From positions 1-13,436 of IMG/VR virus record IMGVR_UViG_2802429224_000007: 13,436 nt of DNA. One strand, given 5' to 3'. Source of the stretch: a virus. Taxonomy: Duplodnaviria; Heunggongvirae; Uroviricota; Caudoviricetes. This document shows positions 1 to 13,436 of this stretch, piece by piece. The position numbers were made by a program, and so were the translations under genes. The stretch's first letter is position 1. Each line of letters starts with the position of its first letter. The notes beneath the pieces are model-generated. The model did not search any database, was not told the DNA's origin, and saw nothing but the letters and a program-made list of their open reading frames with translations.

Positions 1-192
<192 letters not shown>

Positions 193-6048: not shown

Positions 6049-6187
6049 TACGTATCCTTATACCTGAAATCATCGCAAGTATGCCTGGCCGCGAGATTAT
6101 GGCACACTTGTCCGGTTAACTCTCGTTCTCATACAGGTAGCACAAACGTGAAAATCCTTGTTGATGAAAAAGATGATTGGTTAATTT

Positions 6188-6366: not shown

Positions 6367-7107
6367 ATGCTTCATTGGGTTTGTACAAAATGTCAGTCTA
6401 AAAATTCTACGAAGGAATCAGTGTGTCCTGCGTGTGGAACTTCTTTTTGGTCGACGCAGAAAAAAGAAAGGAGAGGGTGTTTATTGTTGGTTGTAATGCT
6501 CTTCGTTGTGTTTTGGGTTATTGGGCAATTATCCGGAAACGAATCCGATTCACAGGTAAATAATATTCCATCGAAAGATCATATTAGCGATGAACTTGCT
6601 TTATCTGGAGTAGACAAGGCGAAACCGTATTCTTTTGTGCGTTATGACGACATAAGTTATGCGGGACGAAAGAGATTTAAGGTTTTTATAGTGTCGCCTG
6701 AATCTCAAGATTTAGAATCAAGAGTTTCGACAGCAAGGGCTGCGGCTATTGAGTGGCAGAAAGAAAAGAGAGCTGACTTTGTGTCTGTGTTGCTTCTACC
6801 TACGGAAAATTCGGAAGGTAGTTATCTATTGACAATGGCTGATTATTCTCCTGATGGTTGCGGAACTGGTGCCGTATGTGACAATAAAAAATGGGCTATA
6901 TCATCTAGTGATGTAATATTAACAAAATCACAACTTCAATCCATATCTTTGTGGAATGAATATAAGAAAAAGTTTGCGGGTAATGATGGGGTTTTGGATT
7001 TAAAGGAAGAAAAGAAATTGAAGCAGTTTATTAGTAAGCAGCTAAATATTCCTGTTAAGGATGTATTTGCTCCAAGAGTCTTGCCTTTAAAGGAAATCGT
7101 AGATTAA
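6367..7107 (+). CDS. Hypothetical membrane protein with N-terminal zinc ribbon (CxxC-x13-CxxC), one transmembrane helix and a ~190-aa C-terminal (likely periplasmic) domain
   Basis: 246-aa ORF: CTKCQSKNSTKESVCPACG, then hydrophobic segment CLLLVVMLFVVFWVIGQL, then a K/E/S-rich domain. Markedly AT-rich compared with the flanking core genes, consistent with horizontal acquisition. SD ggag about 8 nt upstream of ATG. Confidence 0.6.
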   Translation: MLHWVCTKCQSKNSTKESVCPACGTSFWSTQKKERRGCLLLVVMLFVVFWVIGQLSGNESDSQVNNIPSKDHISDELALSGVDKAKPYSFVRYDDISYAGRKRFKVFIVSPESQDLESRVSTARAAAIEWQKEKRADFVSVLLLPTENSEGSYLLTMADYSPDGCGTGAVCDNKKWAISSSDVILTKSQLQSISLWNEYKKKFAGNDGVLDLKEEKKLKQFISKQLNIPVKDVFAPRVLPLKEIVD

Positions 7108-7272
7108 CAAGATAGATGGGGCCAAACTGGTATTATTGCAACCCTCACTTGTGAGGGTGCAAAAAACCGTAGTTTTTGCGCTGCGGGTTTCTGCTTTGGG
7201 ATGATAGGGTGCCTTATCGACCTTAACCCTGGCAACCGATTGACGGGGGATTGCTCCCCCGTCGCGGTTTCC

Positions 7273-7413
7273 TTACTGTTTACACTGTAAGAACGCCGCA
7301 AACTCCGCTCCCCAGAAGCTCATCCGTATTTCACACAGCGAGCCGTGCAGCATCCAGATGATGAGGATTGCCGTCACGCAGAACGTGATGACCGTAAGCG
7401 ATTTTTGCGACAT
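7273..7413 (-). CDS. hok: Hok/Gef-family type I toxin (small membrane-depolarising peptide), 46 aa
   Basis: Manual translation of the minus strand gives MSQKSLTVITFCVTAILIIWMLHGSLCEIRMSFWGAEFAAFLQCKQ. It has the family hallmarks: N-terminal transmembrane helix, SLCE(I/L) motif and C-terminal E(F/L)AAFL.CK (compare HokA ...SLCELHIKQESYELAAFLACKLKE). Strong SD aaggag 8 nt upstream of ATG 7413. Not in the ORF track because it is under 60 aa. Confidence 0.82.
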   Translation of the reverse strand: MSQKSLTVITFCVTAILIIWMLHGSLCEIRMSFWGAEFAAFLQCKQ

Positions 7414-7513
7414 AGCGCTTGCTCCTTTTTCGGGGAGGCGCTAACCTATCACTTGCTAAGGGTAGATGGTTAGGGCCTCGGTTAAACAAAAATGTTTTCC
7501 GGGGCCTTTCCAC
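7331..7513 (-). CDS. Mok-like overlapping reading frame (putative translational coupler for hok)
   Basis: 60-codon ORF in a different frame, starting about 100 nt upstream of hok (GTG 7513) and ending inside hok, as expected for mok in hok/sok loci. Basic, low-complexity product. Could also be a chance ORF. Confidence 0.3.
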   Translation of the reverse strand: MERPRKTFLFNRGPNHLPLASDRLAPPRKRSKRYVAKIAYGHHVLRDGNPHHLDAARLAV

Positions 7514-7599
7514 ATCCGGCCTTCAGGTATTCCCTCCAGCCATCAGCCGAAAGGCACCCGCGCGAATTCTAGCTTGGTTTTTTCCCTTGTTTCAATCCG

Positions 7600-8242: not shown

Positions 8243-9940
8243 TCAGGCGATAAGGTCGCCGTATTTTTCGCGCAGGCTCGTAGCCTGTTGGGCGTCTGCG
8301 GCAAGTTCGCTGCTGTTTGTTGGTGCGCCAGTGTTGCTGTGGGTGTGGTTTGCAGTGTGTGTGGCCAGCAACTGAACCAGATCCAGAATATCAATCAACA
8401 ACGTCAGCAGATTAAGTCCGGATTTTTCCCGTGAGCCACCGCGCCCAATAAATACAGTCGGGGCGGTAAATTCCAGGCCGCCGTCCGCCCGGCATGTTCT
8501 GCGGCCTCCCACGTTTTCGGTGAGGTTATGCTCGATAGTGGATGTCGCCCCTTTGAGTTTAGTCAGCAAATCCTGCGCTACCATCTGGATATGCTCACCG
8601 GCTGCGATCGCATAATGGCCAGTAGTAATGTGTTCTGTCTGACCTGTCATCAGCTTGCTGGTTCCCAGAACGCTGGTTATGTCGTTTGCCTGTACTGTTG
8701 TTGTTCTGGTTGTTGTTGTGCGTTCTTCCTGATCGCTGTTAATGGTTCGCCTGGCTGAATGCTCCCTGATTTGCTGGTCGGTTTCTCTGTGCCAGCTTCC
8801 GTCAGTCGTGACACGCTGAAACACTTCTGCGCGCTGTTGTTGCAATTGTTCGCCGGGTTTTACATCAGGCAGGTTATGACCAGCGGGTAAGATTTGCCTG
8901 ATAACAGGCTTATCCGGGCGTCCTTCAATGTTGGATATTTCCACGATGGTGCCTGCTGGCGGGTAGGCAAAACATCCCGCCTCACTGCCAGCCATGGGGA
9001 CGGGGAGTGGTACTGCCGGGTAAACAGGCGTATCGTTTTTATCGTTGCCGTTCTCATCAAGCAACTGCACATCGACGGCGTAGCGTGGGCGGAAGCTGTC
9101 GGCCACATCGCCCAGGGTGACGGATTCCGTTGGGGCAATGACGCGCGCCAGCCTGGTATGTAGAGTACCGCTGGCCAGTTCCGGGAACTGTGTTTCCATC
9201 TGTCTGCGCAATGGTGATTTGGAGACAGGGCTGCCCGTGACGGTAAGGCGCTCCCATGTCAGGGTCATTTTCTCGTTGTTGAGGGCTACGCGGGTAATGC
9301 GTCCGGCGGGAAGATTCACGCCCGGTCGCACAGTTTCCATAAACATGATGTCGATGCTGTTTCCGCCGCTTTGCCCGAGTGTGTACTGTTGCGGAATATC
9401 CGGCATTGTAATACTGGCAAATCGTGAATCAGCTGCGCTTCCCACAAATACAGAACCGTCCGGCATAGGGTGCCAGACGTAATCGCTGATACTGAATGCT
9501 CGCCCCAGTTGGCTGAGCAGTTGTGCTCCGCTGCCGCTGTGGGTGATGTAGGGAGTTGGTATACTGGCATAATCCGCATCCGGAGTGATAAAAACGATAC
9601 CGCTTTGTCGCCCCAGATTATCGAGTACCCCCCGCAACGTCGGGTGTTGCATGGAGCAAGGGAAATCAAAATCCAGCACAGCAGCCGCTTCACGAATAAA
9701 AAGGCGACGTGAGCCATTTTCAGCAGGTTGATCGCGCTCAATGTAGCCGGAGAAATAGCGCCATGCTTCACCGTCACGGCCGAGATCAATTTGTACCATT
9801 GCGCCGGCAAGGCTGTGTTCGGGTGACAGATTGTTAACAGAAATGAAGCCACGACCGGCAGCATTCAGGGTAAGAACAAGGCTTATATCGGCAATTTCCA
9901 CCCGTTCGCCATTAATCATGCAGCGTTGTATCAATTTCAT
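8243..9940 (-). CDS. Phage structural protein, putative baseplate hub / central spike or fiber-tip protein (C-terminal HxH metal-binding apex-like motif)
   Basis: 565-aa ORF and last gene of the operon. ATGA overlap with the upstream gene stop; SD gaggaagg upstream. C-terminus ...LLATHTANHTHSNTGAPTNSS resembles the HxH apex motifs of trimeric spikes and fibers (P2 gpV C-terminus HTHKHPGDSGGTTG; lambda Stf HxH repeats). N-terminal region loosely resembles gpD/gp27-like hub proteins. Recalled from memory, no search run. Confidence 0.4.
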   Translation of the reverse strand: MKLIQRCMINGERVEIADISLVLTLNAAGRGFISVNNLSPEHSLAGAMVQIDLGRDGEAWRYFSGYIERDQPAENGSRRLFIREAAAVLDFDFPCSMQHPTLRGVLDNLGRQSGIVFITPDADYASIPTPYITHSGSGAQLLSQLGRAFSISDYVWHPMPDGSVFVGSAADSRFASITMPDIPQQYTLGQSGGNSIDIMFMETVRPGVNLPAGRITRVALNNEKMTLTWERLTVTGSPVSKSPLRRQMETQFPELASGTLHTRLARVIAPTESVTLGDVADSFRPRYAVDVQLLDENGNDKNDTPVYPAVPLPVPMAGSEAGCFAYPPAGTIVEISNIEGRPDKPVIRQILPAGHNLPDVKPGEQLQQQRAEVFQRVTTDGSWHRETDQQIREHSARRTINSDQEERTTTTRTTTVQANDITSVLGTSKLMTGQTEHITTGHYAIAAGEHIQMVAQDLLTKLKGATSTIEHNLTENVGGRRTCRADGGLEFTAPTVFIGRGGSREKSGLNLLTLLIDILDLVQLLATHTANHTHSNTGAPTNSSELAADAQQATSLREKYGDLIA

Positions 9941-10512: not shown

Positions 10513-11197
10513 GTAGTGCTTCCCTTAGTGATGAGAGATTATCGCCGACGAACAGCATCACAGCTGTAAAAACCCACTCGGGGTGTGGGATGTTTTTTTG
10601 TATCAGCACTGCAGCCTGGCTAAGGGCTCCCTTGTAGCAAAAGCGCCACACCGGGCAAAATTTTTGCCGGAGTGCGGCCTGCTGATCAGCGATTTCCTGT
10701 AAGGCTTTATCTCTCGCATTCATGAACTGATGCAGCGATGATGACAATGTTTCCGGTGATGTGGCGGCAGGAGTGGCTGCCTGTGCAATGGTTGCTGCCA
10801 GCGACATGCTGCGAGTGGTCTGTGTCGACAGCATTATCGGTTCCGGAAGTGATGTTGCCGGTCTGGCGGGGATTTGCATTCTGCTGATGGCCAGTGAAAG
10901 TTGACTGGAAATCATGCGGGACATTCGCCCCACCTCTGGCAATGGAAATGCGCCTGAAAATTGCCTGGCGAGTGATAAAAACTCGCCAGCAGAAGGAGCG
11001 CAAAACAACAGCGCCACAATGTCTTTTTCTGTGCTTTCTTTCAGGTAGGGTAAAAGTGCAGATACAGCATTTTCGGGGCTGAGATAACGCCCCGATGGTT
11101 TGATGTTTCCGGTATTTTCTGACCATGGATGAAGGCAAACCACAGAGCATTTAATGTTCATGGCTGACGGGCGCAGAATTGCCTTTTCCCATTTCAT
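10484..11197 (-). CDS. Hypothetical phage-associated protein (237 aa), S/T/A/P-rich low-complexity central region
   Basis: ATGA overlap with the upstream gene stop (11194-11197). Longest frame across the interval, but unusual composition and a nested alternative-frame ORF (10707..11150) make the coding call less secure. Composition is reminiscent of tape-measure or linker proteins. Confidence 0.45.
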   Translation of the reverse strand: MKWEKAILRPSAMNIKCSVVCLHPWSENTGNIKPSGRYLSPENAVSALLPYLKESTEKDIVALLFCAPSAGEFLSLARQFSGAFPLPEVGRMSRMISSQLSLAISRMQIPARPATSLPEPIMLSTQTTRSMSLAATIAQAATPAATSPETLSSSLHQFMNARDKALQEIADQQAALRQKFCPVWRFCYKGALSQAAVLIQKNIPHPEWVFTAVMLFVGDNLSSLREALHDPDDCPCA

Positions 11198-11766
11198 TCT
11201 GACTCTCCAGCCTGAAAAGCGCGGATGTCGGCAAGATTATTCAGGCTATCCAGCACATCCTTCATCTGTCGCTGACGTCGATAAATTTCATCGTTGCGGT
11301 TAACTTGCGCCCGTGCCATTGCTGTAGCCAGCTCTTCAAGCTCTGGCATCGACATCTTCACTTGTTGATTATCGGCGTCACCCCATGCCATAACGTCCCG
11401 TGCTGTGTCGGATTTCGCAGCCATTACTACCGGATAAAGGCGGGTCAGTGAGTCCGGGCCAGCGTTCCAGGTGCGTCCGTTCCATTCGAATGCGAACGGC
11501 TGCGCTTCCTGTTCTGTTCGCCAGGCTTCGATTTCCTGGCGTTTTGCGGCTTTTGCCGCTGCGATAAGTTCCGGCGTGACGGTGAACGGGGCGATTTCGC
11601 CCCATTTGCCGCTTTGCAGTTCCCGCCAGACTCGCTGGCCTGTTGTTGCTGTGTCTTCTGATGTGGCTGTGTAGGGAACAAATTCCCCCATTCCTTCAAA
11701 AAGCACTTCGCAGTCAATCGCTCCAGATTCCAGATAACGTGGATTCAGAATTTTTATAACTCGCAT
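11194..11766 (-). CDS. Putative tail fiber assembly / chaperone-like protein (190 aa, acidic, helical C-terminal half)
   Basis: TAATG overlap with the upstream 419-aa gene; SD gagga. Position directly after a fiber-like gene and the pattern ...FEWNGRTW...MSMPELEELATAMARAQ... resemble phage tail-assembly chaperone families (DUF4376-like). Assignment from memory only. Confidence 0.4.
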   Translation of the reverse strand: MRVIKILNPRYLESGAIDCEVLFEGMGEFVPYTATSEDTATTGQRVWRELQSGKWGEIAPFTVTPELIAAAKAAKRQEIEAWRTEQEAQPFAFEWNGRTWNAGPDSLTRLYPVVMAAKSDTARDVMAWGDADNQQVKMSMPELEELATAMARAQVNRNDEIYRRQRQMKDVLDSLNNLADIRAFQAGESE

Positions 11767-13025
11767 TACGCAATCCTCATAAACAGCCCTACAACAGCCC
11801 TTGTGTAGACATTGACCGAGTCGGTGCTGGATAAAGAAATGTAAGTGCCTGAAAGGTCGGCTCCACCTACAAGTGCAGTGGGGCCTGATTCAAATCCTGA
11901 AGAACGAAAATCCGCATAAAACGTCGCCTGTCGAAGCCTTGAGCCGGAATATGACCGTCCACGAATCAGCGTTTTTTTGCTTTCGCTGTCTGAATCTCCG
12001 GTATATGCGGCAAGAACAAGTCCTCCAATATCAGGGAGGTTGTGGTATGAGTCAGTCCATGAATACAATACTCGCGTAAAATCATCCACCTTAAGTAGTT
12101 TTTTTTCCCAACTGTCAGGCAGGGTTGCAGGGGTGATACCGCTGTGAATTCTTGCTGTATAACTCTCCCCATTTATTCCTTTAAAAATTACCTGCTTCGT
12201 TTCTTTTTGCTGATTCTCCGGGGTGGTATTTGTGCGAATTTCAATATCCAGATAGCCGGAAAAAACCAGCGTGCTGGGGCCAGTAATTATGGGGTTCTTT
12301 TTACTGCCACCGAACTGGCTGACAAGATAACGCCCGGGTGGTGTTTCACGTACCCACTGTAAAAATTCGGTCGGCCCCCTTTCGGCACTGAATTTAATTT
12401 CCTCTCCATATTTAAACAGTGCACCAAAGCCGAATGCACCTGGTATGGCAAGGCAACCTTCGGTGCGGTCGTAAATATCGCTCTGGGATTCCATTGTAGA
12501 CGCACTTTTTAGTCCCAGATTGTTTCGGGATTCCTGCTGCGCCTCTTCTCCCTCTGCTGCAATTTCTGACAATCGGTTAGGAGCTTTCAGCATTGATTTC
12601 AGCTCGGGGGTAATATCCACCTGCCAGCTCTGTGGAGGAACGGTAATCTGCGCAGCCTGAGCCACGCCCTGATAAGTAATCGTGAAATTCCTGACCAGTG
12701 ACTCGCCAGTATGTTTCTGGCGAACAGGGGTTTTTATTACGCCGCACAGTGTTCTGCTGGCCTGATGAATGAGGCAAATCCAGTCATAGCTGAATGCACA
12801 GTCATCAGGAACAACTGCGCTACACACAATATTGTTCGGGTTTAACTGGCCATAGGTCAGTTCATTCACAGCATATGTGATTTTTTCTTCCGGAACGGTA
12901 TTATCTTCGCGCGTTGGTTCCCGCTCCATCAGAGCAAAAATAATGGCGTCAGGACGTGCAGGTAAATTACTGGCTGTGCATTCGGCAACCCACTTTTCAA
13001 ATGCTTTCGTTAACAGTGCGCTCAT
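11766..13025 (-). CDS. Putative phage tail fiber protein (419 aa) with a divergent tail-collar/fiber N-terminal domain
   Basis: N-terminal ~120 aa follows the spacing pattern of P2 gpH / Mu gpS-type fiber N-domains (VVPDD..F.YDWICL...TL.GV compared with VIPADVGGF..RE.GL.D..G.LIAV), but the conserved GDG motif is absent. Followed by a chaperone-like gene. Low-confidence functional call. Confidence 0.4.
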   Translation of the reverse strand: MSALLTKAFEKWVAECTASNLPARPDAIIFALMEREPTREDNTVPEEKITYAVNELTYGQLNPNNIVCSAVVPDDCAFSYDWICLIHQASRTLCGVIKTPVRQKHTGESLVRNFTITYQGVAQAAQITVPPQSWQVDITPELKSMLKAPNRLSEIAAEGEEAQQESRNNLGLKSASTMESQSDIYDRTEGCLAIPGAFGFGALFKYGEEIKFSAERGPTEFLQWVRETPPGRYLVSQFGGSKKNPIITGPSTLVFSGYLDIEIRTNTTPENQQKETKQVIFKGINGESYTARIHSGITPATLPDSWEKKLLKVDDFTRVLYSWTDSYHNLPDIGGLVLAAYTGDSDSESKKTLIRGRSYSGSRLRQATFYADFRSSGFESGPTALVGGADLSGTYISLSSTDSVNVYTRAVVGLFMRIA

Positions 13026-13031
13026 TACTTC

Positions 13032-13436
13032 TTAATTCTCGCTAATGTTCTGCGGTAATTCTGGCCATACAATCGAGGCATACGATGCTTTATCTGTAAC
13101 CTGGCTGAATGTCATCTGCTGTAGTGCTTTCGCATAAATACGGCATGCTTTCAGTTTTTCCCTGTCTTCGTCGCTGATTAATCCCAGCAGCAGGTCTTTT
13201 TCCCATTCGCTGGTCATGATGCTGGCCTGTTTTAACAGTGCATCACGCTCATCTTCCGCTTTAAGTTTGTAGTCAAAAACAAATGCATCATTGCGGTAGA
13301 ACCAGTAACCCGACGCCTCAATGCGACGATTGGCGGTAATATCCGGTAGCTCAATCACGCTTTTATTTTCCGGGCAGATTGAGGTGATGTCTTTTCCAAC
13401 CCAGACCACTTCGCCAGTTTCAACATAAATAACTTT
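13032..13436 (-). CDS. Tail fiber assembly protein, P2 gpG / Tfa family (5'-truncated by the window end)
   Basis: The frame is open to the window edge; the ORF-track start at 13409 is a GTG and in-frame codons continue upstream (KVIYVETGEVVWVGKD...). Matches gpG-type Tfa as I recall it: VIELPDITANRR (compare VVEVPDITSNRR) and the C-terminal ...Y..L...D....I.WPELP motif. Confidence 0.7.
   Translation of the reverse strand, partial: KVIYVETGEVVWVGKDITSICPENKSVIELPDITANRRIEASGYWFYRNDAFVFDYKLKAEDERDALLKQASIMTSEWEKDLLLGLISDEDREKLKACRIYAKALQQMTFSQVTDKASYASIVWPELPQNISEN

Follow-up and report, generated by a model that had tools for sequence, protein, structure and literature searches.

The contig PTST01000056.1 (GCA_002965365.1) of Escherichia sp. 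MOD1-EC5948, 13,436 bp long and analysed here in its entirety as the window, very probably carries the distal late tail operon of an HP1-like prophage that encodes two independent receptor-binding units in a fixed order, the second of which has had its tip swapped in. The first unit would consist of a gpH-type fibre (fibre 1), whose gene lies beyond the contig end, and an assembly protein of the gpG/Caudo_TAP type (Tfa). The second consists of another fibre (fibre 2) with its own, anciently diverged gpH-type anchor, usually followed by a chaperone of the DUF4376 family. An earlier note on this DNA had proposed two consecutive fibre-plus-chaperone units, and profile matches together with the gene order of related prophages bear this out.

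Two fibre units in a conserved tail operon

The partial Tfa matches Caudo_TAP (PF02413) across profile positions 24-131 of 131 (E=6.7e-19; 68.8 bits, cut-off 22.1) as well as phrog_136 (E=2.5e-34), in agreement with the gpG-type identity that had been proposed for it, and is 97% identical to residues 51-184 of the Tfa of E. coli ETEC1730. Fibre 2, which the earlier note had called fibre-like, matches PF12571 (DUF3751) with residues 3-142 (E=4.4e-12; 46.7 bits, cut-off 23) and the tail-fibre family phrog_2636 with its C-terminus (aa 136-418; E=9.8e-66). The protein of 190 aa encoded next, described as chaperone-like, matches DUF4376 (PF14301; E=5.6e-17; 62.6 bits, cut-off 25), a family with experimentally supported fibre-chaperone members, and phrog_1141 (E=1.7e-85), which carries the PHROG label 'tail fiber protein'. 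The profile searches thus placed neither of these two proteins in a non-virion family and both in fibre families. NCBIfam and PADLOC scans were uninformative.

The classification of open reading frames (ORFs) took in 23 related loci (E. coli, E. albertii and IMG/VR), 15 of which span the region and 8 of which are shorter fragments. The order J-I-fibre1-Tfa-fibre2-(DUF4376)-orf33-ORF34-hub is kept in 15/15 spanning loci, and the 8 fragments are consistent with it. Fibre 1 of these relatives is a PF12571 protein of 551-622 aa, for example 577 aa in E. albertii L032 (PF12571 plus Phage_fiber_2) and 584 aa in ETEC1730, and it is encoded directly upstream of Tfa in all 15, with an anchor that is 92-100% conserved. 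Because every relative with sequence at this position has the gene, the fibre 1 missing from the window is most probably real, and the genes seen upstream of Tfa in the relatives support the expectation that the fibre served by the first Tfa lies beyond the window. E. albertii L032, at the same flk site, has a fibre 2 that is 99% identical to that of the window and a Tfa of a different allele; given this difference and the near identity of the ETEC1730 Tfa, the fibre-1 tip of the window is probably closer to the ETEC1730 type than to that of L032. Fibre 2 varies from 285 to 842 aa among the relatives, with an anchor that is 69-100% conserved and a hypervariable C-terminus, and a DUF4376 gene follows it in 9/15 spanning loci, none being there in the other 6/15.

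Purifying selection acts on the second unit. Comparison of the window with diverged relatives by the Nei-Gojobori method gave ratios of nonsynonymous to synonymous substitution rates (dN/dS) of 0.06-0.16 for the fibre-2 anchor and 0.10-0.19 for the DUF4376 gene, as befits working and not decaying genes. These ratios bear on the idea that unit 2 is a decaying or passenger module without a virion role, kept by linkage in a defective prophage. The idea draws on a deletion derivative at the same site in E. coli STEC308, which is without head and tail-shaft genes and has a frameshifted replication gene, and on RefSeq, which calls fibre 2 of E. coli SC418 a pseudogene. In an ORF scan, however, the SC418 fibre 2 reads through as 683 aa and matches P0049, and ORFs are intact in the window and in every relative examined. 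The genes are translationally coupled, and the binding-domain allele is 98-99.6% identical in other prophage types, pointing to recent exchange. Taken with the dN/dS values, these findings make a passenger role very unlikely.

All relevant ORFs lie on the minus strand, from 13436 down to 8243, without a break after 11194 (Table 1), and the three ORFs of the earlier note are where it had placed them. The stretch 11194-13436 that it treated as a unit does contain these genes, but it covers only part of the operon, which continues past 11194 with three more virion genes, an orf33-like gene, an HP1_ORF34 gene and a hub/spike gene. Overlapping stops and starts had been noted throughout, and they occur at all but one of three junctions: TAATG joins the 419-aa gene to the 190-aa gene, with a 1-nt overlap, and ATGA joins the 190-aa gene to the 237-aa gene, with a 4-nt overlap, leaving the DUF4376 gene translationally coupled on both sides. 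The exception is the junction of Tfa and the 419-aa gene, which do not overlap and are separated by a 6-nt spacer, TAAgaagtaATG. Further along, the 237-aa and 191-aa genes overlap by 29 nt, and the 191-aa/565-aa junction is another ATGA. No sigma-70-like promoter was found inside the cluster, and both units would be co-transcribed, and partly translationally coupled, with orf33, ORF34 and the hub. As noted earlier, Tfa is truncated at 13436, but the edge is that of the contig; since the window is the whole contig, an assembly break accounts for the cut. In two independent Logan assemblies, too, the sequence breaks off within Tfa.

Table 1. Positions of the tail genes, their parts and the prophage end in the window
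Feature	Position	Strand	Remarks
Tfa, 3' part (134 codons), gpG/Caudo_TAP type, partner of fibre 1	13035..13436	-	stop 13034..13032; cut by contig end
Fibre 2, 419 aa	11766..13025	-	PF12571, phrog_33169, phrog_2636
gpH-type anchor of fibre 2, aa 1-145	13025..12591	-	
Linker of fibre 2, after the anchor		-	ends in NLGLK motif
Receptor-binding domain of fibre 2, aa ~176-419	~12500..11769	-	
DUF4376 protein, 190 aa, putative fibre-2 chaperone or cap	11194..11766	-	PF14301, phrog_1141
Swapped cassette: binding domain of fibre 2 and first ~30 chaperone codons	11676..12536	-	sliding-window identity
orf33-like gene, 237 aa	10484..11197	-	phrog_31292, phrog_1677 (no PHROG of known function)
HP1 ORF34-family baseplate complex protein, 191 aa	9937..10512	-	PF25759, E=2.7e-53
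Baseplate hub/spike, 565 aa, HP1 orf35 homologue	8243..9940	-	phrog_2258, E=4e-233
Prophage attachment core, pdxB 5' end	6151..6170	+	AAAATCCTTGTTGATGAAAA; marks the prophage end next to flk

Two variant forms of slot 2 were also observed among the relatives. In E. albertii NBRC 107761 (locus L010, 7307-9247) and in locus L028, the slot-2 protein has 285 aa and little beyond the anchor; a separate 352-aa ORF comes next, and there is no DUF4376 gene. By analogy with the 'a-type' short DUF3751 proteins of Pseudomonas tailocins (PMC4684702), these loci may have a split anchor and distal fibre. The slot-2 fibres of 668-683 aa (loci L009, L011-L014 and L023) possess two successive binding-domain-like segments (~aa 176-356 and 444-682), a pattern that suggests an internal duplication of the tip domain.

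Anchor paralogy and a cassette swap in the second slot

Fibres 1 and 2 align only over their first ~160 residues, with 34-36% identity. Sequence comparison detected no similarity between the two receptor-binding domains. Likewise, no relation between the two chaperone families was detected by BLAST, nor by a profile-profile comparison of DUF4376 with Caudo_TAP (hhalign), whose power is low with profiles as shallow as these (effective number of sequences, Neff, ~1.3). It has been stated that gene U of Mu carries a DUF4376 domain (PMC7882524), a statement that this comparison could not confirm. The 'duplicated' module of the earlier note is therefore an apt description of the anchors (~150 aa), which are paralogous, but is not supported for the unit as a whole. 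The anchor of fibre 1 shares 41-46% identity with its counterparts in HP1 and SI7, each of which has a single fibre, and judged by these values it is the orthologue of those counterparts. The fibre-2 anchor is 25-35% identical to those of fibre 1, HP1 orf31 and SI7 gp20 alike, and this equal distance from all of them identifies it as an old outgroup paralogue, not a recent copy.

The main alternative to two independent units is that the two fibres compete for the same six baseplate sites, which would yield mosaic particles or particles of two kinds as a form of bet-hedging. In keeping with such competition, PF12571 is the Pfam family of both anchors, the wedge proteins J and I share 52-60% identity with their counterparts in SI7, which has one fibre only, and there is no extra gene between I and fibre 1. 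The limited identity of the two anchors to one another and their separate conservation, at the levels given above, argue indirectly to the contrary: two anchor types that have diverged and yet are each conserved across the lineage fit better with distinct docking partners, so that competition for a single set of sites appears unlikely. On the preferred reading of two independent units, one virion would bear both fibre types, each docked by its own anchor, an arrangement that would provide two receptor specificities or a two-step adsorption.

The earlier note had also raised the possibility that the module is the relic of an invertible host-range cassette. A degenerate Gin/Cin/Hin-type crossover pattern, allowed up to 3 mismatches and used with phage P88 as positive control, finds both sites flanking the P88 invertible fibre segment next to the P88 invertase; it finds none in the window and none in the intact E. 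albertii L032 prophage. No meaningful flanking inverted repeats were found in the region, those detected being short chance matches, and full-length relatives have no annotated invertase in the parts that were retrieved. Both fibres have anchors of their own, there is no shared constant N-terminal part, and the genes are co-oriented. Accordingly, the relic is not borne out. The notion, in which unit 2 would be the frozen alternative end of a Gin/Cin/Pin-type invertible cassette, now in direct orientation, has a precedent of sorts in the P2-family phage P88, with its invertible fibre cassette, two Tfa genes and invertase. Apart from the missing sites, repeats and invertase, however, fibre 2 possesses a complete N-terminal anchor, whereas invertible systems share one constant N-terminal part, and the arrangement is fixed in every one of the spanning relatives; the notion is exceedingly improbable.

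What has moved in slot 2 is a cassette. In 100-nt windows, identity to the sister prophages of ETEC1730 and STEC308 is mostly 90-100% across the operon, with a lowest value of 79%, and only in the ~860 bp of the swapped cassette does it fall to 38-75% at the nucleotide level. This interval extends from just past the NLGLK linker to the fibre-2 stop codon and on through the first ~30 chaperone codons. The allele of the binding domain is a rare one. Among 5,426 complete E. coli genomes, no more than 3 contain so much as a partial match at 82% identity, in every case within a fibre of the lambda-Stf type that has DUF4376 after it, and the allele was found in no sequenced phage. In a large protein collection, the C-terminal 249 aa of fibre 2 are 99.6% identical to the E. 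albertii fibre 2, 98.4% identical to P0004 and 93% identical to another Stf-anchored fibre. P0004, from E. coli, is a fibre of 478 aa that has a lambda Stf anchor (PF08400) and is encoded by a phiP27-like prophage with a Mu-type baseplate. Identities this high in other prophage types argue for the recent exchange of a working cassette.

The chaperone gene records the same event. Residues 1-72 of the window chaperone are 100% identical to P0191, the chaperone encoded beside P0004, a match that runs to about nt 11551. Over residues 1-40 the agreement is 40/40 with P0191 vs 30/40 with the ETEC1730 chaperone, and over residues 121-190 it is 48/70 with P0191 vs 66/70 (94%) with ETEC1730, a member of the HP1-like lineage. 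Judged from these identities, the window chaperone is chimeric, with a donor-type N-terminus and a local-lineage C-terminus. Its composition argues that the binding domain and the chaperone N-terminal part travel together and places the right-hand recombination joint in the conserved DUF4376 core; the left-hand joint lies in the conserved NLGLK linker. Nothing else in the data argues as strongly as this co-transfer that the 190-aa protein would serve fibre 2, and it suggests that the N-terminal ~70 residues of this DUF4376 chaperone carry the fibre-tip specificity. Of the two slots it is slot 2 that evolves fast, homologous recombination having replaced the binding domain and the chaperone N-terminal part in MOD1-EC5948, with the incoming allele also borne on a lambda-Stf-type anchor in phiP27-like, Mu-type prophages.

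AlphaFold2 (AF2) modelled the C-terminal domain of the fibre-2 monomer (aa ~205-419) as globular and confident, with a per-residue confidence (pLDDT) of 75-90, and the 190-aa protein (pLDDT 83) with a small beta domain at the N-terminus, followed by a helix-hairpin core and, at the C-terminus, a long helix. The top Foldseek matches of fibre 2, to phage K gp144, the phi812 baseplate and the R1 pyocin fibre, are weak (E 0.01-0.2) and only suggestive, and a sequence search of solved structures with fibre 2 and the 190-aa protein gave no match. The DUF4376 protein would fold or cap the tip of the fibre-2 trimer through its N-terminal ~70 residues. Beyond helping the fibre to fold, it might also stay on the fibre tip as a part of the adhesin, as T2 gp38 or TfaMu do. 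The PHROG label and the co-transfer of the N-terminal 72 aa with the binding domain would suit a resident protein, as would the proposal that DUF4376 chaperones of Alteromonas phages are transient fibre caps (PMC10579305). With 6 lineage members carrying a slot-2 fibre and no DUF4376 gene after it, permanent residence at the tip is nonetheless less likely than not.

Several points weigh against the picture of two independently displayed fibres, the second with a chaperone of its own. Simultaneous display, separate docking sites and the chaperone mechanism are inferences, and the 6 relatives just mentioned indicate that some slot-2 fibres do without DUF4376. For the fibre-2 anchor, AF2 gave a poor model (pLDDT <50), and Foldseek searches of the Protein Data Bank (PDB) at E<0.001 gave no match for the fibre-2 or the 190-aa model. 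The element in MOD1-EC5948 could, in addition, be defective, given the deletion derivative at the same site in STEC308.

It is tempting to carry the proposal of two independent units one step further. Two fibre sets might be displayed at once through diverged anchors at different sites, and slot 2 might act as a universal socket that trades cassettes of binding domain plus chaperone N-domain with lambdoid side tail fibres and with Mu-type (phiP27-like) phages. We regard this extension as possible and hold it only tentatively; if true, it would define an engineerable route for moving host range between unrelated tail architectures.

The prophage and its integration site

The window holds the right end of a P2-family prophage of HP1-like type (Peduoviridae), which lies beside flk and is inserted into pdxB at its 5' end. 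Its left part is chromosome, with mnmC, fabB, yfcJ and flk, the fabB gene being ~96% identical to that of E. coli. The 20-nt attachment core occurs once in the window and is repeated in STEC308 beside a P2-type integrase, just upstream of an intact pdxB; because of this recurrence at the integrase-pdxB junction, the sequence from position 6170 to the contig end is assigned to the prophage. The same 20-mer contains the 17-bp attB published for PhiSM, a P2-like phage of Citrobacter rodentium (PMC6456863).

Full-length relatives occur in E. coli AJ1, SC418 and ETEC1730 and in E. albertii GCA_027567715.1, at the pdxB site or elsewhere. Their early region is P2-type, with integrase, C, Cox, replication endonuclease and ParM. 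Their late region is HP1-like and encodes portal, terminase, a P2-family capsid, a DUF2586 sheath and the HP1 Orf24 tube, followed by holin, M15 endolysin, tape measure, DUF2590 and baseplate J and I, and then by fibre 1, Tfa, fibre 2, DUF4376, orf33, ORF34 and hub. The window itself covers only the part from Tfa onward, and the complete HP1-like order was read in these near-identical relatives. No sequenced phage isolate in the collection exceeds about 50% identity in the hub protein, and the lineage is thus known only as prophages. A scan of genome contigs with ORF34 returned one locus only, in E. albertii.

The orf33-like gene sits where orf33 of HP1 and gp22 of SI7 sit, a match by position, and its place in the order is kept in all relatives; in STEC308 it is left unannotated by RefSeq, although its product is 97% identical. 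The 565-aa hub is 42-47% identical to proteins of HP1, HP2, SI7 and ESSI-2 and gives a weak VgrG/gpV OB-fold signal at aa 310-363 (the Phage_base_V and vgr_GE matches are weak). It carries an HTANHTH motif near its C-terminus, which we take to resemble the metal-binding HxH apex of P2 gpV-type spikes, and one RefSeq record names the protein 'type VI secretion system Vgr family protein'.

The STEC308 element (L001, NZ_CP091020.1 1644756-1663076) is a form of the same prophage, shortened by deletion to ~19 kb, and occupies the same site. It retains the integrase, regulators, ParM, both fibre units and the genes from orf33 to the hub, its replication gene being the frameshifted one mentioned above, and it is without head, sheath, tube and baseplate-wedge genes. 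The idea of a satellite or tail-only element, to which this copy gave rise, was rejected as the general case because full-length prophages occupy the same site in AJ1, SC418 and E. albertii and because the STEC308 replication gene is frameshifted. Phage P88 (Xuanwuvirus) was also considered as a relative and set aside: it shares only the hok region, and its late genes are standard P2-type with an invertase.

Several further features lie outside the tail operon. Just inside the prophage end, at 6367-7107 (+), is a cargo gene of low G+C content (39%) whose 246-aa product has an N-terminal zinc ribbon, a predicted membrane segment and DUF4875, with no PADLOC match; sister prophages have at this position a TM2 protein, Com and a Mom-like DNA methyltransferase instead. 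A hok/gef-family toxin gene of 46 aa lies at the prophage end (7273-7413, -), and the wider stretch 7162-7571 is 82-95% identical to a 'MokW-like host killing protein' sequence found in many P2-like and Stx phages; Rfam gave no Sok match at the gathering threshold for the hok region. At 63-141 (+), downstream of mnmC, Rfam recognizes naRNA4 (CssrE, RF02564; 74.8 bits), a chromosomal REP-type element unrelated to the prophage.

Comparison with known systems

Receptor-binding modules decide which bacteria a phage or a tailocin can attack, and the present locus is a natural example of a P2/HP1-type tail in which a second fibre slot has an anchor of its own. It gives exact joints, the NLGLK linker and the DUF4376 core, at which a binding domain and the corresponding portion of its chaperone were exchanged as one, and the same binding domain is found in three settings: on gpH-like anchors, on lambda-Stf-like anchors and within phiP27-like phages. 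These properties could make it a practical guide for retargeting phages and R-type tailocins against Escherichia. No new kind of system is revealed; the module is an ordinary dual receptor-binding module that will not surprise a specialist.

Two adjacent pairs of fibre tip and Tfa are also found in Mu (Gin), P1 (Cin), e14 (Pin) and P88. There the pairs stand in opposite orientation, share one constant fibre N-terminus and are bounded by 26-bp crossover sites with an adjacent invertase. The window shows none of these hallmarks of invertible cassettes.

HP1 (orf29-orf35) and SI7 (Irrigatiovirus) share with the lineage the tape measure, DUF2590, J, I, fibre, Tfa, orf33, orf34 and orf35/hub genes and differ in having a single fibre-chaperone unit. 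By this comparison, fibre 2 and its DUF4376 gene were inserted between Tfa and orf33 in the Escherichia lineage specifically. The gpH/gpG pair of P2 and Prf15/Prf16 of R-type pyocins follow the same plan of a PF12571 anchor that attaches to the baseplate, then a dedicated chaperone (PMC7882524, PMC6363177, PMC4684702). P2 and the R-type pyocins have one such unit, with a chaperone of the gpG/Tfa type, whereas the second PF12571 fibre of the window has a DUF4376 chaperone instead. On a second fibre in P2-like phages, literature searches brought up no relevant title or abstract.

Functional evidence on DUF4376 proteins comes from other hosts. In Alteromonas phage V22, the DUF4376 protein gp27 is essential for active fibres and has been proposed to be a transient cap (PMC7289586, PMC10579305), and a DUF4376 gene downstream of the H-fibre of Campylobacter CJIE1 is required for the function of that fibre on an R2-pyocin scaffold (PMC7882524). 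As in the window, these genes lie directly downstream of the fibre and belong to the same Pfam family, but their sequences are distant and the enterobacterial subfamily is known from sequence.

A close parallel in layout is phiP27, in which L54-L57 encode, on one strand, fibre, Tfa, fibre and DUF4376, an arrangement that has been annotated since publication of the phiP27 genome. Relative to the window, the Tfa is 87%, the DUF4376 protein 76% and the fibre-2 C-terminal domain 44% identical, and the last of these is 77% identical to that of the E. coli sister prophages. L54 combines a Mu-type N-terminus with the fibre-1 tip (93% identical to ETEC1730), and L56 carries the fibre-2 tip behind an N-terminus that looks lambda-Stf-like by eye, PF08400 having been confirmed only in the relative P0004. 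PhiP27 differs from the window lineage in its Mu-type baseplate and in that neither of its fibres has a gpH-type anchor. Unrelated phages are documented to exchange fibre-chaperone modules horizontally (PMC10579305). Thus, DUF3751/PF12571 anchors, DUF4376 chaperones and fibre-chaperone exchange have all been described already; the points peculiar to this locus are its lineage, HP1-like Escherichia prophages that integrate in pdxB and have a fixed second slot with a gpH-type anchor, and a precisely mapped swap of a fibre tip with the N-domain of its chaperone.

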